From the IMG/VR virus record IMGVR_UViG_3300045988_145635: a stretch of DNA of 64,000 nucleotides, one strand, 5' to 3'. Made by a program: the position numbers and the translations under genes. The notes under the pieces were generated by a model. It saw only the letters and a list, made by a program, of their open reading frames with translations, made no database searches and had not been told where the DNA came from. Shown here piece after piece: positions 3,799-17,059 of this stretch. Each line of letters begins with the position of its first letter. Within the stretch, counting starts at the first letter, position 1. The stretch is from a virus (lineage: Duplodnaviria; Heunggongvirae; Uroviricota; Caudoviricetes).

Positions 3799-4224
3799 AT
3801 GTTAGGTTTATTCAAAAAGAAAACTCGTAAAGCTGTTATCGAGGTCAAAAAAATGGAGAACCGAGATGCGGTTGAAGCCACCGTGTGGGGCGCGTACATG
3901 ATCTCCTATGCCGATGGCACATGCGACGCAAAGGAAATTTCCATTCTTGAGAAAACAATTGCAGCTCTGCCTGCGTTTTCTCCGTTTGCTGGTGAGATTG
4001 CCCAAATGAGCGCCAATATCCGTGCTCAATACGAAGCCTCACCGCGCCGCGCTAATGCCCAGGCTTTACGTGAGCTGGCTGATGTGGCCGGGACTAATGA
4101 TGCAGTAGATGTACTGTGTCTGTGCCTTGATATTGCCGACCAAGACGGTATTGGCGAACAAGAAGAGCTGGCCCTGAAAAAGATCGCACAGGCGCTTCAG
4201 TTGTCACTGGATGCTTATCTCTAA
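3799..4224 (+). CDS. TerB-like domain protein
   Basis: Two DG-x-x-D/E-x-x-E-x-x-x-L segments (YADGTCDAKEISILEKTIAAL; DIADQDGIGEQEELALKKIAQAL) as in TerB-family proteins; operator motif A upstream. Confidence 0.55.
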   Translation: MLGLFKKKTRKAVIEVKKMENRDAVEATVWGAYMISYADGTCDAKEISILEKTIAALPAFSPFAGEIAQMSANIRAQYEASPRRANAQALRELADVAGTNDAVDVLCLCLDIADQDGIGEQEELALKKIAQALQLSLDAYL

Positions 4225-6148: not shown

Positions 6149-7834
6149 ATGAATACAGCTCTTTCCATCATCGACGATGCCAACTCAAACACTGCTATCG
6201 ATTATCGTCAGGAAATGAACGTCATCCACGAAATTGTGGCCGAGTGCGAGAAGGAGATCGCCTTCATGTATCAGGTTCACGACTTCGTTTATGGAGACGA
6301 ACGCCACAACATGATTAATCGCCTGCTGCAACTGAACCACCGACCAGATGAAGAACGCTCACGTTTGAATCGAGCTTGGCTGGATAAAGTCGATCTGGAA
6401 TGGGTGAAACAGAATATTTGGGCCGAGTACTGGAGGAAGGTCACGGATATGACTAACGTTCTGCTGATCATGCCAGCTTCCCGTCGCGACGAGTGGCGTG
6501 AGCAGTTTATCGAGGGTAAGCAGGAAGTCATCAAAACTGACAGAACCGGCTATCAGATGAAGGTAAAAGAGTTCGTTGGTGTACCGGAGTTCAAAGCAGA
6601 AACGGTCATACCCACGATGCTTAATTTGCTGAATGACAGGCACAAATATCTCTCTGAGCGCGTGTATGGCTTGTTTAAGGCGCTGAGTCCTGCGCACAAG
6701 ACAAATAAGACAAACGGTTTCAGCGAACGTCTGATAATCGCTGACTGCATTTCTGATTTCTGGCGGGACAGCGTTAGTGTGAACTATCGCAAAGAGGACT
6801 ATATCGACGATCTGCGTGTCTTGCTTCATTTCTTCGCGCACAAAGAATTTATTACCATCAACCGCACTGCTGAGGTGCTATCAGCTGCGTATCGGGCAAA
6901 CGACTGCCAGACCGGTGACTGGATGAACGTCGATGGAAATCTGATGCGCGTGAAGATGTTCAAGAACGGCAACGTTCACTTTGAAATACATCCTGACGTG
7001 GCCTGGAAGTTGAATGAGGTGCTGGCTTACAGTATGCCTGCTGCAATCCCCGCGCCATGTCGCACCGCGCCAAAAACACGGGCACCAAAGCAGTTCGGGT
7101 TAATCCAGAAGACGATCTCCGTGCCGGTTCGCACTGCGCTTCGTGACGGGCGATTGAGCAAAGACAAAGGCGTATGGTACTTCTCTGATTCAGCTCTCCA
7201 GAAGTCGCAGGTGGAAGAGCTTGAGCGCACACTGAGCTTCATTGGCGGCGTGCAGGAGAAAAAGCACTGGCAGTTCCCGTATGACATCGTCCATACGCTA
7301 AATACGATTGTGGCTACCGGTTTAATACCGGATACAAAATCACACCAGTTCTACCCTACCCCACGCTTGATTGCTGAGTACGTTGCCAGAGCCACTGAAT
7401 TGAAGCCTGGTGAGAAGCTGCTGGAGCCTCAAGCCGGACGTGGGGATCTTCTGGCCTATATTAACGCCGATCTGGAAGATGTTACCTGCATAGAAATCGC
7501 ACCTCTCTTCGCTGATATCCTGCGTGGAAAAGGGTATACGAACACGATTTGCTGCGACTTCATAAAGTGGTCTGAGGACAACGTAGGTTATCAGTTCGAC
7601 AAAATCGTTATGAACCCGCCGTATTCGCTTGGTCGTCATAGAGAGCACACGCTGGCTGCGCTGGGGCATCTGAAAGTCGGCGGGCGTCTTGTAGCAGTAT
7701 TGCCGGGCACTGCGCCAATACTGGACTGGATGACGATGGATAATTACGTTTATGCCAGAGGGAAGTCGTTTACCAACGAGTTTGAAGACACAGGGATCAC
7801 AGTCAGCGTATACGTTTTCAAACGCGTTAAATGA
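6149..7834 (+). CDS. DNA methyltransferase, gamma-class N6-adenine type, with ~340-aa N-terminal domain of unknown function
   Basis: C-terminal motifs in gamma order: FYPTP (motif X), LEPQAGRGDLL (motif I), IVMNPPYS (motif IV). Confidence 0.7.
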   Translation: MNTALSIIDDANSNTAIDYRQEMNVIHEIVAECEKEIAFMYQVHDFVYGDERHNMINRLLQLNHRPDEERSRLNRAWLDKVDLEWVKQNIWAEYWRKVTDMTNVLLIMPASRRDEWREQFIEGKQEVIKTDRTGYQMKVKEFVGVPEFKAETVIPTMLNLLNDRHKYLSERVYGLFKALSPAHKTNKTNGFSERLIIADCISDFWRDSVSVNYRKEDYIDDLRVLLHFFAHKEFITINRTAEVLSAAYRANDCQTGDWMNVDGNLMRVKMFKNGNVHFEIHPDVAWKLNEVLAYSMPAAIPAPCRTAPKTRAPKQFGLIQKTISVPVRTALRDGRLSKDKGVWYFSDSALQKSQVEELERTLSFIGGVQEKKHWQFPYDIVHTLNTIVATGLIPDTKSHQFYPTPRLIAEYVARATELKPGEKLLEPQAGRGDLLAYINADLEDVTCIEIAPLFADILRGKGYTNTICCDFIKWSEDNVGYQFDKIVMNPPYSLGRHREHTLAALGHLKVGGRLVAVLPGTAPILDWMTMDNYVYARGKSFTNEFEDTGITVSVYVFKRVK

Positions 7835-7895: not shown

Positions 7896-8600
7896 ATGAA
7901 CAACCTCCAGTTAGAGCATTTTAACGTCACAGGCCATTCTGATTTTCCTTTCAAGTTTACATTGAAAGGTTATGCAGAGGATGCGGTAGGCCAGATCATT
8001 ATTGATAAAGGCATCGTTAAGTTTGAGGGGGATTTTGATGAATCCGCGAAAACATTCATAGACTTCGTTGCCAAACGTTGGAGCGAGCAATGGAAAAACC
8101 TGGAAAAGCGCGCCAATGAGTTTGATCGGTTCATGGATGCAATGGATACAGCAAAAGAGGCTCTTGATGCCGGGACTCCGTTAGATCTGGAGTCACTTTT
8201 CAACGGCGAAGTGGCCTCTGCGATGTTTGCCACCATGTTCGCGGGTGAGTTCGTCCGCAGCGGTGCCAAAAACTACCTTGAGCTGGATTACAACGTCCCT
8301 GCAATTGGCGATTTCGTCGTTACCATCCAACGCAAAGAAGGTAAGACGCCAGGTGAACGCGTCGCAGAGCTTGAGGCCGTTGTGGATCAGCGTAACGGAG
8401 AGTGTGACCGTTTGATCAACGAGCTTCATGCACTTCGGGAAGAAAGAATATGCGCGGGTAGTAATACACGTAATGCAGCGGATATCTACTTCCAGTTAGT
8501 TGAGGAATGCCAGATTCCACCAGGTGGCTCTCTTGTCGATTACGTAAGACATTTAATGGCGGAAGTTAGCTCCAGCCATAAAGATGGTGAGGTGCGCTGA
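7896..8600 (+). CDS. Hypothetical protein
   Basis: 234-aa ORF; motif B site upstream (7833-7854). Confidence 0.5.
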   Translation: MNNLQLEHFNVTGHSDFPFKFTLKGYAEDAVGQIIIDKGIVKFEGDFDESAKTFIDFVAKRWSEQWKNLEKRANEFDRFMDAMDTAKEALDAGTPLDLESLFNGEVASAMFATMFAGEFVRSGAKNYLELDYNVPAIGDFVVTIQRKEGKTPGERVAELEAVVDQRNGECDRLINELHALREERICAGSNTRNAADIYFQLVEECQIPPGGSLVDYVRHLMAEVSSSHKDGEVR

Positions 8601-8980
8601 TGTTTGGCATTGACGCACAGCGTATAGCCGCTTTTGCAAAAAGCCCTCTTGATAATCCCTTGTCTCGTAGTGAGCAAATGGAGCTGGCAAGGCTTTTTCT
8701 TCACATTCAAAAACAGGCAGACATTTTCAATAACATGCCTAATCAACCTATTCTGGATGGTCACATCCAGATGGTCATTAACAGTCATGAGAAAGGCTGG
8801 GCTGCAATCGTCCCCAGCACAATTACATACAAGTTGGCGAAAGAGGTTCAAGAGTTTCGAAAAGCCAGTGTCGAATCTGAGTCTACCAAAGCCGCAATAA
8901 ACACTCTTATTCGCATGGGATTCACATGGAACGGTGGAGCCTACTGGCAAGCACCTCACCCCATTTTATCCGGCAATTAG
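8600..8980 (+). CDS. Hypothetical protein
   Basis: Start overlaps upstream stop (TGATG); 126 aa. Confidence 0.5.
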   Translation: MFGIDAQRIAAFAKSPLDNPLSRSEQMELARLFLHIQKQADIFNNMPNQPILDGHIQMVINSHEKGWAAIVPSTITYKLAKEVQEFRKASVESESTKAAINTLIRMGFTWNGGAYWQAPHPILSGN

Positions 8981-9035
8981 ACGCTACAAATCCTTCTGCG
9001 TGAATAAATAAAGGCCATAAGTTGTGGCCTTAAAT

Positions 9036-9091
9036 AAATTGTTTTCTGCCTTTTCTTATTTGTGAAAATAACCACAACTAGAAAACAACGG
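9036..9091 (+). promoter_or_regulatory. Conserved promoter/operator module (TTGTTTTCTGCC ... GAAAACAA half-sites)
   Basis: ~45-bp module shared with 17143-17210 and 21217-21262, lying directly upstream of a start codon. Confidence 0.5.
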
Positions 9092-9099
9092 AGTTAAGA

Positions 9100-9741
9100 A
9101 TGTCTAGTATTTCCGAAGCACATATGTTCGCCGCTGGCGCTCATGGTGGCGTTGGTCAGAAAAGAAAATATACCGGCGAAAACTACATCAACCACCCGGT
9201 TGCTGTCCGAGAGATTGTTGCATTGCATGACGGAACCGTGGAGATGCAAATCGCGGCGCTTCTGCATGATGTGGTCGAAGACACCCATGTAACCATAGAG
9301 ATGGTTCGTGATCACTTCGGTGAGCGCGTAGCTGAAATGGTTCAGGCTCTGACCAACATTGCAAGGCCAGAAGACGGCAATCGAATACAGCGTTTCATCA
9401 TCAATGTCCGGGAGCTGGAGCAAAATCTCGACATGCAGACGCGCATGATCAAGCTGGCTGACCTGCTCGACAATACCTCTTCTATCGTGAGTCGCGATCC
9501 TGAGTTTTCAGCTATCTACCTTGCAGAGAAAGAGCTGATGCTGGACGTACTTTTTAACGGGAAGGAGATTGGTGCCAACGCTGATGTTGTCGAGTACATG
9601 GAGAGGATAGGTATAGAACACCCGTTGTTATTAAGCGCAAAGGCGAAAGTCACTGAAGGTATTGCGCTTCTGAAACCGGTACACATCAAACGTTATGAAA
9701 AACACAAATCGCTGATCTGGAGCGCGTGGGAGGCTGCATGA
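9100..9741 (+). CDS. HD-domain small alarmone hydrolase-like protein (RelA/SpoT hydrolase fold)
   Basis: HPVAVREIV ... AALLHDVVEDT matches the (p)ppGpp-hydrolase HD signature; 213 aa single-domain size. Confidence 0.65.
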   Translation: MSSISEAHMFAAGAHGGVGQKRKYTGENYINHPVAVREIVALHDGTVEMQIAALLHDVVEDTHVTIEMVRDHFGERVAEMVQALTNIARPEDGNRIQRFIINVRELEQNLDMQTRMIKLADLLDNTSSIVSRDPEFSAIYLAEKELMLDVLFNGKEIGANADVVEYMERIGIEHPLLLSAKAKVTEGIALLKPVHIKRYEKHKSLIWSAWEAA

Positions 9742-10280
9742 AGGTCGAAAAAATAGATGTTCTTTCCTTTGTGCTGACGGATCTGGAACGCCTCGATCCG
9801 GTTCGAGTGATGATTGAAAACTACGAACCTGGTAAGGGAAGAATCACCATCACCTGCTACGGAAAAGCGTGGACTGCGGCTTGGTTTGCTATGGGCGGTG
9901 ATGATGTGCAGACGTTCATTAAGCGAGTTAGCAACGATTATCTAATCGACAATTTCGACCCTCAACTGCTAAGCACGGTCGACGATGACAACGATGCAAA
10001 TCTGCTTTTCGTAAAGTCAGAAATCATAAAGTTACGAAGAGAGAGAGAAATAGACGCCGTACTGGCTCGCGAAATGTGGGACGAGGCGGAAAACGCCGAT
10101 GACGTAAAAGAAAGCTGCTGTTGTTTCGGCGTCGGTAACAAACTGCTGAATCTCTTTGGTGATGATCCGTGGTATGCCGACTGGCCAACGGTACCAAACC
10201 CGAAATACCAGTATCTGGAACGCATTGTGAACGCGGTACGTGAAGGGCTGAAAGAGTTAGATAAGTTAGAGGCATCGTAA
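9738..10280 (+). CDS. Hypothetical protein
   Basis: ATGA overlap with upstream gene, GGAGG RBS. Confidence 0.5.
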   Translation: MKVEKIDVLSFVLTDLERLDPVRVMIENYEPGKGRITITCYGKAWTAAWFAMGGDDVQTFIKRVSNDYLIDNFDPQLLSTVDDDNDANLLFVKSEIIKLRREREIDAVLAREMWDEAENADDVKESCCCFGVGNKLLNLFGDDPWYADWPTVPNPKYQYLERIVNAVREGLKELDKLEAS

Positions 10281-10723
10281 TGAGAGAGAAAATCAAGAAC
10301 CCGGTCGTCGTATTGTATAAACGGGAAACCAGCGATTCTTATGCGGTATCCATCACTGATGGAAGCCAGAACATGCACGATGGTCTGCTAATGGCCTCCG
10401 TATCTCCTGATGATTCTGACTACCCTTTCGCCACTTTCGCTATGGTTGGTTACTACATGGCTGCCGAAATTGAGAAGTTGCGTGTTGAGCTGGAGACCGT
10501 TAAACAGCGGGAAAAGGATCTGTTTATGGAAAATGTTCGACTTAAGTCAGGTATAGCAGGTCTGATACACCTCGGTATTCGATATGCGGATGTCGAAGTC
10601 ATGAAAATAGCTGGAGATGCCCAGCTTTCTACTCCCTGTACTGACAGCATCATAAACAGTATTGCATCAGGCGTTTTCACCAAAGAGGGTCAGCATGATG
10701 AGAACAGTAGAAGTTCGCGCTGA
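10280..10723 (+). CDS. Hypothetical protein
   Basis: TAATG overlap with upstream gene. Confidence 0.5.
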   Translation: MREKIKNPVVVLYKRETSDSYAVSITDGSQNMHDGLLMASVSPDDSDYPFATFAMVGYYMAAEIEKLRVELETVKQREKDLFMENVRLKSGIAGLIHLGIRYADVEVMKIAGDAQLSTPCTDSIINSIASGVFTKEGQHDENSRSSR

Positions 10724-10883
10724 AGATGTAATCCCAGGTGATGTGGTCATAACATCTAAAGGCAAACGATGTGCGGTTAAATCTTTCTGGATGGAAGGTG
10801 ACAAAGTGACTCTGTTCGGTACAGATGGTTCCGAAACGGATTATGACTACGACGAATTGCTTGTTGTTGAGAGAGCTATCTAA
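10695..10883 (+). CDS. Hypothetical small protein
   Basis: AGAGGG RBS before ATGATG; overlaps the end of the upstream gene. Confidence 0.4.
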   Translation: MMRTVEVRAEDVIPGDVVITSKGKRCAVKSFWMEGDKVTLFGTDGSETDYDYDELLVVERAI

Positions 10884-11536
10884 TGACCACCGTTAACAAT
10901 AAGAAATGCTACCCAAGCGAGAAATATCTTAATGAGCTGATCACCAACATTGAGTTTGCTGCAAGGGCACCAGTTGAAGTCGTGAGAGCGATTGCAGCAG
11001 AGCTACAGAAGCACCGTAAGGCCTATGCCAATACAGCAGCAACTAAGGATGGTTGGATAAGCTGTAGTGAGCGAATGCCTGTAATTGGCGAGCTAAATTG
11101 GAGAACTAGTTTTCCTTTACTGGTTACGTGTGAGATCGGCGTTATACCTGCTTATTACGGCTTTGTGAGCGTTAATGGTGATAGGCATTATGGCTTTATG
11201 GAGAGTCTTAAATACGGAGACGATAACGGCAACCATCCTCAAACTAATGAATATGGTCTGATTAGCAATGTCACACACTGGATGCCACTACCAGAACGCC
11301 GCAGGAGTCGAACAGTGAATAAAGCAGAGTTATTTCAGAAAATATCGGCTCTCGCGACTGAATGCCACGCTATAGCATCTGAGCTTGATGTTGGCGATGA
11401 ACGAACCGAGATGTTCGAAATATACAGTGTGCTGCGCAATCTCTGTCGGCGTGGCTACGCCACTCAAGTAGGGCGAATGACTAACCCACTACTCTCATCC
11501 TGTGATGAGGATGACTCGGATGAGGATGACGAATGA
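10883..11536 (+). CDS. DUF551-like phage protein with acidic C-terminal tail
   Basis: WISCSERMP ... THWMPLPE resembles the DUF551 signature as I recall it; TAATG coupling. Confidence 0.45.
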   Translation: MTTVNNKKCYPSEKYLNELITNIEFAARAPVEVVRAIAAELQKHRKAYANTAATKDGWISCSERMPVIGELNWRTSFPLLVTCEIGVIPAYYGFVSVNGDRHYGFMESLKYGDDNGNHPQTNEYGLISNVTHWMPLPERRRSRTVNKAELFQKISALATECHAIASELDVGDERTEMFEIYSVLRNLCRRGYATQVGRMTNPLLSSCDEDDSDEDDE

Positions 11537-11916
11537 TGCATAAATCAGTAGCCGGTGAGTTTCAGAAGGAAGTCGATAATACCACTGATCTATTGGACGA
11601 TATTTTAAGCATTCTCGCGCTGCTTGAGGCTGGCGATTGGTCAGAACATTGCACTAAAACAGAGCTAGGCGGTCGGCTTGAAAGAGAGATTACACGACTG
11701 ATTAGCGATGCCCAAAATGATTTGTCACCTGAGCATCTCCCCTGCGATGTAGTTCTTGTGCCAGGGATGAGGATACACGAAGGCGTCAGAACGAAAACAT
11801 TATTAACCGCATTACAGAGAAGAGCCGAACTAAGCTCGCGGATAAAGTTGATGCCATCCAAAATATTTGATGTCGTCAAATTTATGCCATCGCAACATAC
11901 TGAGAGAGATAAATGA
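11533..11916 (+). CDS. Hypothetical protein
   Basis: ATGA overlap with upstream gene. Confidence 0.5.
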   Translation: MMHKSVAGEFQKEVDNTTDLLDDILSILALLEAGDWSEHCTKTELGGRLEREITRLISDAQNDLSPEHLPCDVVLVPGMRIHEGVRTKTLLTALQRRAELSSRIKLMPSKIFDVVKFMPSQHTERDK

Positions 11917-12539
11917 GCACGGTAGCGAAAGATCTCACAGAAGATATTCTCAATGAAATTATTGCTGGTGCAAATACCTCGCTTGAGCAACTTCTTGCGT
12001 TAGCACTGAGAGCCGAACGTCGAGACAGAAATCGTTTTTATGAGCGATTACCAGGGAAGCGACCAGATAGATCGGATGAAGAAGGTTGCGATATAGACTA
12101 CATGGAGCCTTCAGAGATTTATCAACTTGGTAAAGATGACGGCTGGAACGCTTATCACGATGCTGTGATGAAGTTGGATGAAAAAGTTAAACCTCTTTCT
12201 CGACCGGTAGATCACGGTTTCCGCGATAACTGCGAATGCTCTAGTTGCCAGACCACGGCCCGTATTTGTTCCGAATTGACAGATAAGTCCAGCCTAATCT
12301 ACGAAGTTAATGTAGGCGGTAATACATGGGTCGAATGCACAAGAGCTGCATACGTAAGAGCAAAAGACAAGGGTGAATTAACCAGAGTTGTTACCAATCA
12401 CCCAAATAATGAGCTTAAAGATCACCAGATTCGAGAACTGGTGAACGAGTTGAGAGATATTGCGGTTCAGTACCACGGAACGCAGCAATTGCGGGAGAAG
12501 ATTGCCAGAGCAGTGAACAACTCAGTCCGTAAAAAATAA
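11913..12539 (+). CDS. Hypothetical protein
   Basis: ATGA overlap with upstream gene; followed by a hairpin terminator. Confidence 0.5.
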   Translation: MSTVAKDLTEDILNEIIAGANTSLEQLLALALRAERRDRNRFYERLPGKRPDRSDEEGCDIDYMEPSEIYQLGKDDGWNAYHDAVMKLDEKVKPLSRPVDHGFRDNCECSSCQTTARICSELTDKSSLIYEVNVGGNTWVECTRAAYVRAKDKGELTRVVTNHPNNELKDHQIRELVNELRDIAVQYHGTQQLREKIARAVNNSVRKK

Positions 12540-12556
12540 GCAATAGTACGATAAAG

Positions 12557-12583
12557 AGGCCCCATGCTCTTGATGGGGCCTGT
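12557..12583 (+). terminator. Factor-independent terminator closing the left-arm operon
   Basis: AGGCCCCA-loop-TGGGGCCT stem followed by a T. Confidence 0.5.
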
Positions 12584-13304
12584 AGCAACTAGCGTTATGG
12601 ACGCTGGTTTACGTACTCAATGATCGCTTTGATAATCGCGAACATCGGCGGCACGATTTTGAACAGTAAGTTAACCATAACAGGCCTCACTTAGTTTTAT
12701 CGCGCCTAGCTGCAAATACCTTTGGGCTTGCCTTTGCAGTTGCAATATCTGTAGTCGCCAGATACTTACGGCACGATTTCGAGTTAAGGTAAGGTTTTAG
12801 AGTCACCAAAAACCTGGACTTAAATCTTCTTTGAGAACAACGATGTTTAGTAAATGGTCATTATTACCTGGTATGACCACTCAACGTTTCTTGATGAATC
12901 CAGTACATTCGGTTAATCTTAATTCAGTCGCCAGATACTTATGGCTCAGGAACAGAGCCGCAAACTCTGTTTCCTTTTAAAAAGCCCAGCCTAGTCAACT
13001 GGGCTTTTTAATGTCTATTTTTAACCCAATGAACCTTCAATACCGCAACATCAGTGTCTTGCGAATTAAGATAGTGTGTATAGGTTATGCATGCAAGTGC
13101 ATAACTCTGTGGATAACTCAGGAAGGAAAAAGTAGCTTCCGCGCAATTTAGGCCAGACAAGGCTTTCGCAAAAGTCAACAGAGAGAAAAAATTTGTTAAA
13201 AATAACGTTTGTTGGAATTGTATATATTTATGCCTTTCAATAGTTAGCATCTTATTAACATCTTTTTTAAGAGATAGAGTTCAAAAATATATAGCTTCAA
13301 CATA

Positions 13305-13324
13305 TACTGTATGTGTATACAGTA
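13305..13324 (+). promoter_or_regulatory. LexA (SOS) box
   Basis: TACTGTATGTGTATACAGTA fits CTGT-N8-ACAG; 17 nt upstream of the UmuD-prime-like start. Confidence 0.65.
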
Positions 13325-13340
13325 TTAAGAGGCGAGTATT

Positions 13341-13730
13341 ATGGGCTTCCCTTCTCCTGCGGCGGATTATGCTGAGAGCCGTATTTCTCTTGATCAGCAG
13401 ATAATTAGACATCCTTCAGCGACCTACTTCATGAGGGCAGCTGATAGTCATCATCGTGAGGGAATATTGCAGGGCGCATTGCTGGTGGTCGATTCCTCAC
13501 TTACCCCGGTTGATGGTTCTCTGCTTGTATGCGCTCTGGATGGGGAATATCGCGTAAAAAGATACCGGAAGTATCCACGTCAGCATCTGGAGGATTTAAG
13601 AACTGGTAAGAAGGAAGCATTGCCAAAGGATGACGATGGATGCACGGGCAGCAATGCCGTGTTTGGTGTGATCACTCACATTATCAACGACGCAAGAAGT
13701 GGCGAGTTTGATGATTGTCCTGTGATGTAG
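13341..13730 (+). CDS. UmuD-prime-like S24 peptidase-family protein (HumD-like, pre-truncated UmuD mimic)
   Basis: Begins MGFPSPAADY, i.e. at the position of the UmuD self-cleavage site; conserved Ser (ADS) and Lys (VKRYRK) positions; SOS box upstream. Confidence 0.7.
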   Translation: MGFPSPAADYAESRISLDQQIIRHPSATYFMRAADSHHREGILQGALLVVDSSLTPVDGSLLVCALDGEYRVKRYRKYPRQHLEDLRTGKKEALPKDDDGCTGSNAVFGVITHIINDARSGEFDDCPVM

Positions 13731-13767
13731 GAGAACTGTTTAGGTGGTGCAATGCACCACCTTTTTA

Positions 13768-14868
13768 TCACACTGCGCGGAATGCGATTTCGCCAGGTAT
13801 TACTTCACCTTGCCAATACATTTGGGCAGCAACGCGATCTGCGAGGTCACGATAAATAGCCGTAAATTCGCTATCTGGACGACTAATAACGGTTGGTGTT
13901 CCGTTATCCAGATCTTCACGAAGAGAGATATGAAGTGGCATTTGGCCTAACAACTGCGTGTTGTATTTCTCGGCCAGTTTCTGTGCGCCACCGGTGCCAA
14001 AAATTGGCTCGTGATGACCGCAGTTACTGCAAATATGCACACTCATGTTTTCGACGATACCCAGTACCGGCACTTCGACTTTTTCGAACATCACAATGCC
14101 TTTCTTCGCATCGATCAGCGCGATGTCTTGCGGCGTAGTTACCACAACCGCACCAGTTACAGGAATGTTCTGCGCCAGCGTCAACTGAATATCACCAGTG
14201 CCCGGCGGCATATCGAGAACGAGATAGTCCAGATCAGGCCATAGAGTTTCCTGCAACATCTGCATCAGCGCCTTGCTGGCCATCGGTCCACGCCACACCA
14301 TTGCATTGTCGTCGGTGACCAGATAACCAATAGAGTTGGTTGCCAGGCCATGAGACATGATAGGTGCCATGTGAGTACCGTCCGGTGAGGTTGGACGTTG
14401 GTTTTCCGCGCCCAGCATGGTTGGAATTGATGGACCATAGATATCGGCATCCAAAATACCAACTTTCGCACCTTCAGCAGCCAACGCCAGTGCCAGATTT
14501 ACCGCCGTGGAGGATTTACCTACGCCGCCCTTGCCTGAGCTGACGGCGATAATGTTCTTAACGCCATTAATGCCTGGTTGGTTTTTGACGCGCTTAAGCG
14601 TGGCAATGTTGTACGACAGCTTCCAGTCAATAGCCTTTGCGCCAGTGATACGGAGCAGATCACCACTACATTGCTCTTTCAGGTCTTCAAAAGGCTTATT
14701 CCACACGAAAGGCATGATTAGTTCGACATGCAGTGTGTCATCCATCAACGCAACATGGTGTAACGCTTTAAGCGTAGTCAGGTTGTGTTTCAGGGTTGGG
14801 TGCTGAAAATTAGCCAGCGTACCGGCTACCATTGCTCTCAGGGCATCCGGCGATTTGGACTCGCTCAT
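13768..14868 (-). CDS. apbC: Fe-S cluster carrier ATPase ApbC (Mrp)
   Basis: 366 aa; Walker A SSGKGGVGKSS, CxxC (CSNCGH); near-identical over its length to enterobacterial Mrp as I recall it. Confidence 0.93.
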   Translation of the reverse strand: MSESKSPDALRAMVAGTLANFQHPTLKHNLTTLKALHHVALMDDTLHVELIMPFVWNKPFEDLKEQCSGDLLRITGAKAIDWKLSYNIATLKRVKNQPGINGVKNIIAVSSGKGGVGKSSTAVNLALALAAEGAKVGILDADIYGPSIPTMLGAENQRPTSPDGTHMAPIMSHGLATNSIGYLVTDDNAMVWRGPMASKALMQMLQETLWPDLDYLVLDMPPGTGDIQLTLAQNIPVTGAVVVTTPQDIALIDAKKGIVMFEKVEVPVLGIVENMSVHICSNCGHHEPIFGTGGAQKLAEKYNTQLLGQMPLHISLREDLDNGTPTVISRPDSEFTAIYRDLADRVAAQMYWQGEVIPGEIAFRAV

Positions 14869-15025
14869 CCCGTCTCCTTTATTTTAATTTGCGCAATTGT
14901 CGCCTTGTAGTGTACTCCAGCTACGACATTTAATCATTTATGAGAAATGCTGTTATCACATGGCAGACATAAGGCCATTTTGTTACTATCAAGCCCCTTT
15001 TCACTACAAAGAAGTAATGCCTACT

Positions 15026-17059
15026 ATGACCCAAGTCGCGAAGAAAATTCTGGTGACGTGCGCGCTGCCGTACGCTAACGGCTCAATCCACCTCGGCCAT
15101 ATGCTGGAGCACATCCAGGCTGATGTCTGGGTTCGTTACCAGCGAATGCGCGGCCACGAGGTTAATTTCATCTGTGCCGACGATGCCCACGGTACGCCGA
15201 TCATGCTGAAAGCGCAGCAGCTTGGTATCACACCGGAGCAGATGATTGGCGAAATGAGTCAGGAACACCAGACTGATTTCGCAGGCTTTAACATCAGCTA
15301 TGACAACTATCACTCGACGCACAGCGAAGAGAACCGTCAGTTGTCTGAGCTTATCTATACTCGCCTGAAAGAGAACGGTTTTATTAAAAACCGCACTATC
15401 TCTCAGTTGTACGACCCGGAAAAAGGCATGTTCCTGCCGGATCGTTTTGTAAAAGGCACCTGCCCGAAATGTAAAGCGCCAGATCAATACGGCGATAACT
15501 GTGAAGTCTGCGGCGCAACATATAGCCCGACTGAATTGATCGAGCCGAAATCGGTGGTTTCTGGCGCTACCCCGGTAATGCGTGATTCCGAACACTTCTT
15601 CTTTGATCTGCCTTCTTTCAGCGAAATGTTGCAGGCATGGACCCGCAGCGGCGCGTTGCAGGAGCAGGTGGCGAACAAAATGCAGGAATGGTTTGAATCC
15701 GGCCTGCAACAGTGGGATATCTCCCGCGATGCGCCTTACTTCGGTTTTGAAATTCCGGACGCGCCGGGCAAATATTTCTACGTCTGGCTGGACGCGCCGA
15801 TTGGCTACATGGGTTCCTTCAAGAATCTGTGCGACAAGCGCGGCGATACCACCAGCTTCGATGAATACTGGAAGAAAGACTCCACCGCCGAGCTGTACCA
15901 CTTCATCGGTAAAGATATTGTTTACTTCCACAGCCTGTTCTGGCCTGCCATGCTGGAAGGCAGCAACTTCCGCAAGCCGACCAACCTGTTTGTTCACGGC
16001 TATGTGACAGTGAACGGCGCGAAGATGTCCAAGTCTCGCGGTACCTTTATTAAAGCCAGCACCTGGCTGAATCATTTTGACGCCGACAGCCTGCGTTACT
16101 ACTACACTGCGAAACTCTCTTCGCGCATTGATGATATCGATCTCAACCTGGAGGATTTCGTTCAGCGCGTGAATGCCGATATCGTGAACAAAGTGGTTAA
16201 CCTGGCCTCCCGTAATGCAGGCTTTATCAACAAGCGTTTTGACGGCGTGCTGGCAAGCGAACTGGCTGACCCGCAACTGTACAAAACCTTTACTGATGCC
16301 GCTGAAGTGATTGGCGAAGCATGGGAAAGCCGCGAATTTGGTAAAGCTATCCGTGAAATCATGGCATTGGCTGACCTGGCTAACCGCTATGTCGATGAAC
16401 AGGCTCCGTGGGTGGTGGCGAAGCAGGAAGGGCGCGATGCCGATCTGCAGGCGATTTGCTCTATGGGCATTAACCTGTTCCGCGTGCTGATGACGTACCT
16501 GAAACCGGTACTGCCGAAACTGACTGAACGTGCAGAAGCATTCCTGAATACAGAACTGACCTGGGATGGTATCCAGCAACCGCTGCTGGGCCATAAAGTG
16601 AATCCGTTCAAGGCACTGTATAACCGTATCGATATGAAACAGGTGGAAGCACTGGTGGAAGCATCCAAAGAAGAAGTGAAAGCCACAGCCGCACCGGTAA
16701 CTGGCCCACTGGCTGACGACCCGATTCAGGAAACCATCACCTTTGACGACTTCGCCAAAGTTGACCTGCGTGTGGCGCTGATTGAAAACGCGGAGTTTGT
16801 TGAAGGCTCTGACAAACTGCTGCGTCTGACACTGGATCTCGGTGGGGAAAAGCGTAATGTCTTCTCAGGCATCCGTTCTGCTTATCCCGACCCACAGGCA
16901 TTGATTGGTCGTCACACCATTATGGTGGCTAACCTGGCTCCGCGTAAAATGCGCTTCGGTATCTCCGAAGGCATGGTGATGGCTGCTGGCCCCGGCGGGA
17001 AAGATATCTTCCTGTTAAGCCCGGATGCTGGTGCTAAACCTGGCCACCAGGTTAAGTAA
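15026..17059 (+). CDS. metG: Methionine--tRNA ligase
   Basis: HIGH motif (ANGSIHLGH), KMSKS motif, zinc knuckles CPKC/CEVC, C-terminal tRNA-binding domain; start chosen at [11 protein letters not shown] (the ORF-track start at 14897 is an upstream extension). Confidence 0.96.

Follow-up and report, generated by a model that had tools for sequence, protein, structure and literature searches.

Accessory arrays of small, overlapping genes have long been known from lambda-like phages. The nin region of lambdoid phages, located between P and Q, was reportedly described by Kroger and Hobom in 1982 as a series of genes interlinked through ATGA junctions. The exo-xis or 'ea' region of lambda (ea22, ea8.5, orf61, orf63, and orf60a) likewise consists of small, nonessential, mosaic genes that overlap each other, and the P22/HK140-type early-left region, with its Ead, EaA, Eae, and Ea22-like genes, counts among the closest systems to the one described here. 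The exo-xis genes undergo early transcription and influence lysogenization (PMC8614690, PMC7093339, PMC10834534), modulating the lysis/lysogeny decision (PMC8614690, PMC7093339). A further prophage accessory cluster, yfdQ-yfdR-yfdS-yfdT of CPS-53, encodes the HD protein YfdR followed by the DUF551 protein YfdS, and overexpression of this cluster inhibits DnaA-dependent replication initiation (PMC4776307). Phage accessory regions as a class are enriched in host-modifying and anti-defense genes (10.1101/2023.04.06.535777).

The window, that is, the whole 64,000-nucleotide stretch of viral DNA analyzed here, carries such an array on the plus strand at positions 9100 to 12539, which encode an HD-domain protein (HD) and the products of genes A to F. 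The SSU5 group is delimited by near full-length nucleotide similarity to known phage-plasmids of about 100 to 110 kb. Judged from the array region, which is what the comparison covers, the window is an SSU5-like phage-plasmid of E. coli: positions 9000 to 12650 show 99.8% identity to the 108.5-kb E. coli plasmid pEND_Eco14033-3 and, where compared, 95% identity to the phage-plasmids CMS-2020a and Cyrano, and SSU5 is 87% identical across HD and A. The array is flanked by a DUF4942 methyltransferase on one side and HumD/apbC/metG on the other, and its neighborhood contains two orphan DNA methyltransferases in addition to the SAH-like hydrolase. Together with the two upstream genes (7896 to 8980), it quite probably represents a hypervariable accessory region of an SSU5-like phage-plasmid, built from shuffled modules.

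This assignment draws on a set of 11 relatives (cited by name, such as Cyrano, or by label, such as L002). The flanks (DUF4942 methyltransferase, up1, and up2 on one side and HumD/apbC on the other) are 96 to 99% identical, and the HumD/apbC flank is kept in 9 of the 10 E. coli relatives, L010 being different downstream. Interior gene content differs in 7 of the 11 relatives. By this comparison, the array has the kept flanks and variable content that define a phage accessory region. HD and A form a single insertion/deletion module (9075 to 10279), with both genes present in SSU5 and both absent from Cyrano and PhiR41_1. They are the sole part of the array common to SSU5 and the window; SSU5_099 and SSU5_100 are direct orthologues (87% protein identity), followed by unrelated genes. 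Conversely, CYRAN_91 to CYRAN_97 of Cyrano, which lacks HD and A, include direct orthologues of C (92%), D (97 to 100%), residues 1 to 61 of E (97%), and residues 83 to 208 of F (94%), with E and F combined in one 220-aa gene. The two halves of gene B lie in separate genes in L002, L003, L004, L009, and L011, with one to five extra genes between them (Ea22-like, ClpX zinc finger, and others in L002, L004, L009, and L011), and pECAZ162_2 has about five additional genes inside B. The segment from 11715 to 12203, which covers the C-terminal half of E and the N-terminal half of F, is absent from L003, L004, and L011; in these relatives, a single gene combines E(1-61) with F(83-208). Breakpoints recur at 9071 to 9074, 10280, 10482/10487, 11044 to 11048, 11714, 12204, and 12523, coinciding with gene junctions and short conserved motifs. 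The six genes that the earlier note described as obligatorily cotranslated do not make up a fixed unit: relatives 96 to 98% identical in the flanks lack HD and A, have one to five genes inserted in B, carry D either split or fused, or have E and F as a single gene.

The intergenic leader of the array (8981 to 9099, plus strand) contains a GC-rich hairpin at 9011 to 9031. It is kept up to about 9071 to 9074 in all relatives, including those without HD and A, and copies of 9008 to 9072 reappear 3' of the array in L004, L009, and L010. Another GC-rich hairpin (12557 to 12581) lies directly 3' of the F stop codon and has a T-run on the minus strand only. A promoter scan shows no sigma-70-like promoter on the plus strand ahead of HD, and neither of the hairpins at the array ends is followed by a plus-strand T-tract; a common transcription unit is, therefore, something that we infer. 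An Rfam scan of 8500 to 13800 gives no match, and a repeat scan detects no repeats within the array. Its base composition is unremarkable.

The first protein of the chain (HD; 9100 to 9741, plus strand; 213 aa; phrog_990) matches the Pfam domain HD_4 (E = 1.2e-18) and the N-terminal region of TIGR00691 (E = 1.2e-24). Its PDB matches (1e-13 to 1e-4) are SpoT, Rel, Mesh1, and SAH, and its alignment with the first three is confined to their hydrolase domain. The motifs LLHDVVEDT and IKLADLLDN correspond to the HDxxED and KLADxxxN signatures. By its domain and motifs, it is a predicted RelA/SpoT-type small alarmone hydrolase that has no synthetase domain, in keeping with the label of alarmone hydrolase that this gene had been given. 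Such a hydrolase at the head of the array sets it apart from the exo-xis region. The likeness to CPS-53 is also partial: YfdR is an HD protein of the YfbR-like 5'-nucleotidase type, whereas that of the window belongs to the RelA/SpoT-type HD_4 family; a homologue of DUF2303 (YfdQ) is missing from the window, and the gene order and intervening genes differ.

Gene A (9738 to 10280, plus strand; 180 aa) gives no match with the local Pfam copy. All 120 of its listed homologues (67 to 93% identity) carry precomputed matches to Phage_phiTE_072 (PF26211), and one orthologue bears the PGAP name 'phiTE_072 family'; we infer membership in PF26211 from this close homology. The dN/dS ratio of A is 0 to 0.4. 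Its AF2 model is confident (pLDDT 86.7) and matches no solved structure, and PDB sequence searches with the single sequence and with a profile return nothing significant. Members of this family are found in the exo-xis regions of Klebsiella prophages and, in a nin-like position, in a Pectobacterium prophage and phage EC.W1-9. Since HD and A are gained and lost together within the SSU5-like group, this pair at least could be a functional unit. A universal HD-A linkage was rejected, as A is found without an HD neighbor in the Klebsiella and Pectobacterium prophages.

Gene B (10280 to 10723, plus strand; 147 aa; phrog_492) is a recombinant that consists of an N-terminal module (10280 to 10482) and a coiled-coil C-terminal module (10487 to 10690), joined at a KLRVELET motif. 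Its last 10 codons, which overlap C, are the product of a 1-nt deletion at about 10686/10687. In BLASTP, its similarity to lambda Ea22 is confined to 18 residues of the KLRVELET-type coiled-coil motif (pairwise E = 0.009). Assignment to the Ead/Ea22-like family (PF13935) is not supported, as B has no Pfam match at E ≤ 0.1; what B and Ea22 have in common is this motif. Gene C (10698 to 10883, plus strand; 61 aa, or 62 aa from 10695) matches phrog_15283 over its full length (E = 4.8e-44). Its conserved start is 10698, the ATG at 10695 being peculiar to the window lineage. L006 and L007 have an annotated 61-aa gene C with an ATGA junction; in the window-type lineage, PGAP shortens it to 46 aa.

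Gene D (10883 to 11536, plus strand; 217 aa) consists of three modules: an N-terminal module (10883 to 11038), DUF551 (about 11051 to 11296), and a C-terminal module, D_C (11315 to 11536). The DUF551-like signature noticed earlier is confirmed by a match of residues 57 to 138 to Pfam PF04448 (E = 1.4e-9; 39.1 bits against a 22-bit gathering cutoff), and DUF551 DNA of HK140 gp32 is 98% identical to that of the window. At the start of DUF551, a 33-bp stretch (11047 to 11079, plus strand; KDGWISCSERMP) has nucleotide matches in lambdoid, Stx, and Salmonella phages; about 20 of the 60 records listed carry it with 100% identity. L004 and L008 have their breakpoints next to it, at 11044 to 11048, so that this stretch is likely a recombination joint. 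The acidic tail attributed to this gene is present (SSCDEDDSDEDDE), as part of D_C, a separate 73-aa helical module on the plus strand that matches positions 1 to 73 of the 79-position phrog_4220 profile and has its own AGGAG (11303 to 11307) and GTG start. PGAP annotates D_C as a separate 73-aa coding sequence, and in L004 and L008 it is a separate gene that overlaps the DUF551 gene by 8 nt, whereas in the window a 1-nt length difference at about 11297 fuses the two in frame. As D_C is a distinct module with its own Shine-Dalgarno sequence and start, the array comprises seven ancestral gene modules, not six. The fused 217-aa form is itself conserved (cluster P0242, with 196 member sequences from 87 contigs). 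DUF551 and D_C are also fused in proteins of 282 to 359 aa, which softens the suggestion of a recent, degenerative origin of the fusion. The pseudogene mark that PGAP gives to the DUF551 part is an artifact of partial family alignment. The AF2 model of D is poor (pLDDT 44.6) and unusable for a fold search.

Gene E (11533 to 11916, plus strand; 127 aa; phrog_19524) shares its N-terminal 61 residues with single-gene variants of 220 to 284 aa. Gene F (11913 to 12539, plus strand; 208 aa; phrog_21749) contains a Cys motif (residues 94 to 130; nucleotides 12192 to 12302) and a C-terminal helix module (residues 168 to 201; nucleotides 12414 to 12515) that elsewhere forms the N terminus of many DUF551 proteins. 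PDB sequence searches with B, C, D, E, and F return nothing significant. Each array gene matches a PHROG family, and scans of all genes against Pfam, NCBIfam, PHROGs, and PADLOC provide a functional name only for HD and DUF551. The earlier statement that these genes have no recognizable function thus stands for A to F, which have neither a known function nor a solved relative. Among the PADLOC models, neither HD nor any of A to F has a match; the upstream methyltransferase alone does, to MTase models. Pfam scans of the window genes also show no NinB, NinG, or other Nin families, and none of the lambda exo-xis proteins has a full-length homologue in the array.

All six junctions had been described as ATGA or TAATG overlaps. 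Five are true 4-nt or 1-nt overlaps on the plus strand: HD/A (ATGA, 9738 to 9741), A/B (TAATG, 10278 to 10282), C/D (TAATG, 10881 to 10885), D/E (ATGA, 11533 to 11536), and E/F (ATGA, 11913 to 11916). They are far beyond chance, since in every case a long open frame has to follow an ATG placed at a fixed offset. The site at 10695 is not a stop/start overlap: the letters ATGATGA exist there, yet the B frame closes at 10721 to 10723, so that B and C overlap by 26 to 29 nt. Alignment with L006 and L002 reveals that the window lineage has lost 1 nt from a G-run at about 10686/10687; this deletion destroyed an ancestral junction that is a true ATGA in relatives. Such overlaps are nothing out of the ordinary in this genome: roughly 10 further junctions between same-strand genes of the window overlap by 1 or 4 nt, giving roughly 1 in 6 against 5 of 6 in the array; the count is approximate, the crude gene caller having mis-picked antisense ORFs at 8540 to 8959 and 11562 to 11990. 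The same style is found wherever the array gene families turn up in other phages, including Klebsiella prophage exo-xis regions, the Pectobacterium nin region, the HK140 early-left operon, and phage EC.W1-9. Long runs of dispensable, mosaic small ORFs linked by ATGA or TAATG are common to the nin region and the array, which differ in genomic position and flanking functions; the lambda exo-xis array extends from exo to xis/int, whereas that of the window lies elsewhere, on a 108-kb phage-plasmid. Stop/start overlaps across the array and its relatives measure 1, 4, 8, or 29 nt, and single-base indels at these junctions either fuse overlapping gene pairs or lengthen one gene into its neighbor. 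Each start lies behind a purine-rich Shine-Dalgarno-like stretch, clear for HD, A, B, C, D_C, and E and weak (GAGAG) for D and F, which counts against strict dependence on upstream translation.

The ORFs, tightly packed and in a common orientation, are real genes, as proposed earlier, and evolve under purifying selection. They are intact in 10 relatives, with no internal stop codons, and their dN/dS ratios are mostly 0.0 to 0.5 where substitutions suffice. Of the two findings that the earlier note said would speak against its reading, disruption in relatives takes the form of deletion, fusion, and recombination rather than stop codons, and absence of expression has a counterpart in one lysogen transcriptome, that of Cyrano, where homologues are near background: CYRAN_93 to CYRAN_96 have fpkm values of 5.5 to 14, compared with 96 for the repressor (PMC9928086, S1 table). 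Near-silence in a lysogen is the pattern that early lytic genes would give.

The array is probably an ordinary mosaic accessory region of the lytic phase. It would have been assembled head to tail from shuffled modules of 30 to 90 aa (phiTE_072, the Ea22-type coiled-coil motif, DUF551, the acidic-tailed helical module, and the Cys motif) drawn from a pool that phage-plasmids appear to share with the early-left (exo-xis, 'ea') and nin regions of lambdoid phages. It might be transcribed as a single unit, repressed in the plasmid (lysogenic) state and active soon after induction or infection. Translational coupling through the tight overlaps would help equalize expression without being obligatory. 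Together with the conserved motifs, these overlaps may serve as in-frame recombination joints, permitting cassette swaps that do not break the operon. The products could be nonenzymatic binding or adaptor proteins, each acting alone on host or phage targets, with the likely role of tuning host physiology and the lytic/lysogenic decision, as is reported for lambda Ea22, other exo-xis proteins, and YfdQRST of CPS-53.

It is improbable that the array products make up a single six-subunit machine. A row of five true 1- or 4-nt overlaps, at a density above that of the rest of the window, would suit the earlier idea of six obligatorily cotranslated proteins, taken here to act as one complex or pathway. 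However, this idea is largely refuted by near-identical relatives that differ in gene content, by a Shine-Dalgarno-like stretch at each start, by a B/C junction that is not a stop/start overlap, and by single families that occur alone in unrelated phage contexts, leaving it extremely improbable. Hardly more credible is a decaying, functionally neutral cargo in which the frameshifts, fusions, and PGAP pseudogene calls represent erosion: single-base indels do change gene ends at two junctions, DUF551 bears the pseudogene mark, and lysogen expression is near background, but the indels leave both partners open, the 217-aa D is conserved, the pseudogene call is artifactual, no relative has internal stop codons, and most modules have dN/dS ratios far below 1.

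An anti-defense island, with cassettes and perhaps HD and A neutralizing host immunity at entry or induction (the proposed targets being alarmone- or tRNA-pyrophosphorylating toxSAS systems, restriction, and retrons), is a less remote but still unlikely reading. It accords with the accessory-region signature of conserved flanks and highly variable content (10.1101/2023.04.06.535777), the nearby methyltransferases and SAH-like hydrolase, the acidic tail of D_C, and the joint gain and loss of HD and A; SAHs are known for neutralizing toxic alarmone synthetases (PMC7229694). PDB sequence and fold searches, however, reveal no likeness to characterized anti-defense proteins and no structure matches, A lacks an HD neighbor in the Klebsiella and Pectobacterium prophages, and a DefenseFinder survey of SSU5-group phage-plasmids lists the Rad anti-retron as the sole anti-defense system (10.1101/2025.09.12.675607). 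The narrower proposal that HD and A form a two-gene counter-defense module, gained and lost whole in SSU5-like phage-plasmids, is quite doubtful. In it, the hydrolase, targeted or regulated by A, would counter a host immune system based on alarmone or tRNA pyrophosphorylation, and the downstream cassettes, still swappable through in-frame junction motifs, would be further anti-defense factors acting individually.

Under the preferred reading of a mosaic accessory region, the main value of the analysis is a correction: the ATGA/TAATG chain reflects the way in which accessory regions of temperate phages generically pack and recombine their genes and is no evidence for a six-protein machine. Gene junctions and short conserved motifs appear to act as exchange points, and single-base indels at overlapping junctions yield gene-pair fusions. 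The phiTE_072, DUF551, phrog_4220, phrog_19524, and phrog_21749 families are common in Enterobacteriaceae prophages, and none has a known function. This makes the array a reasonable candidate source for accessory-gene screens, with no priority over hundreds of similar regions. Among 5426 complete E. coli genomes, only 23 have 80% or more of the stretch at a single place, whereas 1367 contain pieces of it, 1299 places being chromosomal.

The unknown genes A to F (9738-12539), which lie behind the upstream gene HD (9100-9741), form an ordinary mosaic accessory-gene array on a phage-plasmid, drawn from the lambdoid ea/nin module pool. Over the stretch 9000-12650, the window shares 99.8% identity with pEND_Eco14033-3, a 108.5-kb plasmid from an avian E. 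coli strain, and 96 to 98% with about 20 further E. coli plasmids of 104 to 115 kb. In phage collections, this stretch best matches the SSU5-like phage-plasmids CMS-2020a, Cyrano, and PhiR41_1, along with SSU5 itself. These plasmid identities and phage matches identify the window, at the sequence level, as an SSU5-type phage-plasmid, one of a group with more than 1,200 elements. Among 5,426 complete E. coli genomes, 1,367 contain parts of this stretch, for the most part within chromosomal prophages, and only 23 have 80% or more of it at a single location.

The ORFs of the chain are real genes. They stay open in ten relatives, each of them matches a PHROG family (several over the full length), and dN/dS is 0.0 to 0.5 wherever substitutions suffice. 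The values are 0.22 for HD and 0.17 for A in comparison with SSU5, about 0.34 for C, and about 0.3 for DUF551; E (11533-11916) has too few changes for a judgement. The 217-residue product of gene D (10883-11536), in which an earlier note had recognized a DUF551-like signature and an acidic tail, indeed contains both: the signature scores 39.1 bits (cut-off, 22 bits), and the tail belongs to a 73-residue module, D_C (11315-11536; phrog_4220), with its own AGGAG and GTG start. In RefSeq, PGAP labels the DUF551 part of D an incomplete pseudogene (11043-11297 in the relative L001, with equivalents in L002, L006, L007, L009, and L011) and recognizes just the last 73 codons as a gene. Since the 217-codon ORF is intact and conserved, this label seems to be an artefact of annotation. 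In the window-type lineage, PGAP further trims gene C to 46 residues.

The earlier note had further described six stop/start overlaps that would oblige six proteins to be co-translated. Reading of the sequence bears out five of these junctions, ATGA at 9738 (HD/A), 11533 (D/E), and 11913 (E/F) and TAATG at 10280 (A/B) and 10883 (C/D), but not the one at 10695. The letters ATGATGA are present there, yet gene B (10280-10723) is in a different frame and stops at 10721-10723, overlapping C (10698-10883) by 26 to 29 nt. In the aligned relatives L006 and L002, the site reads GAGGGGG...CACGATGA, and B and C share a true ATGA overlap there. One G at about 10686/10687 has been lost from the window, L001, and L010, which shifted the end of B and added ten new codons. 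The extra ATG at 10695 was created by a C-to-T change, the conserved start of C being 10698.

Each 1- or 4-nt overlap requires that an ATG at a fixed offset open a long reading frame, so these overlaps are not chance events. Nor are they special to the chain: about 10 more same-strand junctions in the window have identical overlaps, such as 3799/4224, 7896/8600, the run 29444/30124/30789/31451, 32814/33446, and 39152/39586. Their rate is about one in six junctions in the rest of the window versus five of six in the chain, the second, gene-caller-based count of window junctions being approximate. A purine-rich Shine-Dalgarno-like stretch precedes every start; those of D and F (11913-12539) have a weak one (GAGAG), and in HD, A, B, C, D_C, and E it is clear. 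The sequence therefore permits coupling without making it obligatory; these separate stretches, together with the varying content among relatives, speak against obligatory co-translation.

Relatives with the same conserved flanks differ in gene content, and these comparative data contradict a single six-protein unit. HD and A are both absent from Cyrano and PhiR41_1, and SSU5 has only HD and A in common with the array, followed by unrelated genes. In pECAZ162_2 and the 2013C-4991 plasmid, the matches to the N- and C-terminal halves of B are separated by four or five additional genes, among them one Ea22-like and one encoding a ClpX-type zinc finger, so that B of the window is a recombinant of two genes. 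Cyrano, PhiR41_1, and 2013C-4991 encode a single protein of 220 to 284 residues that corresponds to residues 1 to 61 of E and 83 to 208 of F. In PhiR41_1 and pG749_2, D_C is a separate gene with an 8-nt overlap (GTGAATAA) with the DUF551 gene; the two share one frame in the window lineage owing to a length difference of 1 nt at about 11297. The DUF551 and D_C fusion is also found in proteins of 282 to 359 residues with DUF550 or Ead_Ea22 N-terminal domains, so the event may have gone in either direction.

BLASTN breakpoints recur at identical window coordinates in several relatives (9071-9074, 10280, 10482/10487, 11044-11048, 11714, 12204, and 12523). The first two bound a block of HD and A (9075-10279) that ends precisely at the start codon of B. 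The joint at 10482/10487 falls at the coiled-coil motif KLRVELET, the sole stretch similar to lambda Ea22. The joint at 11044-11048 adjoins a 33-bp stretch (11047-11079) where the DUF551 domain begins. Many lambdoid, Stx-converting, and Salmonella phages (about 20 of 60 records listed) have this stretch with 100% identity amid divergent DNA; it is probably a recombination joint. The C-terminal helix module of F (residues 168 to 201) corresponds to the N terminus of DUF551 proteins, with 82% identity in one of them, P0140, where the Cys motif of F sits downstream of the helix module; the modules of F are permuted.

The modules are also found in other phages. Precomputed assignment places A in the Phage_phiTE_072 family (PF26211). 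In Klebsiella prophages its neighbours are an MT-A70 methyltransferase on one side and a DksA/TraR zinc finger, xis, and int on the other, which is the exo-xis position; in a Pectobacterium prophage it is flanked by the replication genes and Q, which is the nin position. An A homologue also occurs in phage EC.W1-9, surrounded by "eae" and "ea22" genes. In HK140, part of gp32, located in the early-left operon beside Ead/Ea22-like genes, is 98% identical to the DUF551 DNA. All of these arrays have the same run of ATGA-type junctions as the chain, and none has an HD gene adjoining A, so the HD-A linkage is local to the SSU5-like group.

None of the proteins encoded by the chain has a known function. 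Scans of these proteins with Pfam, NCBIfam, and PADLOC added none, PDB sequence searches with them gave no match, and the structure model of D (pLDDT 44.6) is unusable. The HD protein contains HDxxED and KLAD motifs without a synthetase domain and matches SpoT, Rel, Mesh1, and SAH in PDB; by these features it is a bona fide RelA/SpoT-type hydrolase-domain homologue. The sole expression data come from Cyrano in LF82 lysogens, where fpkm values are 5.5 to 14 for CYRAN_93-96, compared with 96 for the repressor and 7084 for a moron with high expression (PMC9928086, S1 table). In the plasmid state the array is therefore almost silent, which fits lytic-phase genes, not lysogenic-conversion genes.

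Among related systems, exo-xis genes are the earliest transcribed, are dispensable, and alter the lysis/lysogeny balance (PMC8614690, PMC7093339), and Ea22 variants are mosaic, one of them containing DUF551 (PMC10834534). The DUF551 protein YfdS adjoins the HD protein YfdR within a prophage cluster whose overexpression inhibits replication initiation (PMC4776307), and counter-defence and host-modifying genes are enriched in variable accessory regions (10.1101/2023.04.06.535777). By analogy, an anti-defence role of the array is plausible, the one noteworthy point being the clean HD and A block as a candidate counter-defence pair. Most likely, the array would be one lytic-phase transcript of closely packed ORFs with facultative coupling between them, the junctions and short conserved motifs would also serve as in-frame recombination joints, and the small non-enzymatic products would work individually on host or phage targets.

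The 5' end of the neighbourhood, ahead of a DUF4942 methyltransferase (6149-7834), encodes an N6-adenine methyltransferase, RNase HI, and a TerB-family protein (670-1263, 2266-2859, and 3799-4224). With the N6-adenine and DUF4942 enzymes as two orphan DNA methyltransferases, this stretch resembles an accessory or anti-restriction neighbourhood. The genes up1 (7896-8600) and up2 (8600-8980), located 5' of HD and linked by a TAATG overlap, are part of the same accessory array as the chain. The N terminus of up1 matches the N-terminal part of phrog_3451, the C-terminal part of which matches A; some phages therefore have a fusion of about 280 residues that joins the up1 N-terminal part to A. A hairpin-bearing intergenic cassette 5' of HD (9008-9072) is found again 3' of the array in three relatives (L004 7591-7634, L009 6055-6119, and L010 5559-5623; 82 to 86% identity) and behaves like a portable operon-boundary element. 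The chain is followed by an 800-bp gap (12540-13340) with no convincing ORF and no Rfam match, which is a 1-nt indel apart from the closest plasmid and contains 20-nt direct repeats, AGTCGCCAGATACTTAYGGC, at 12753 and 12926, as well as CGGCACGATTT at 12649 and 12769. Beyond it (13341-17059), a HumD/UmuD-like gene (13341-13730) adjoins full-length host-like apbC/mrp (13768-14868, minus strand) and metG (15026-17059). HumD and apbC are kept in nearly all fetched E. coli SSU5-like relatives, and the Cyrano lysogen expresses apbC (fpkm of about 92).
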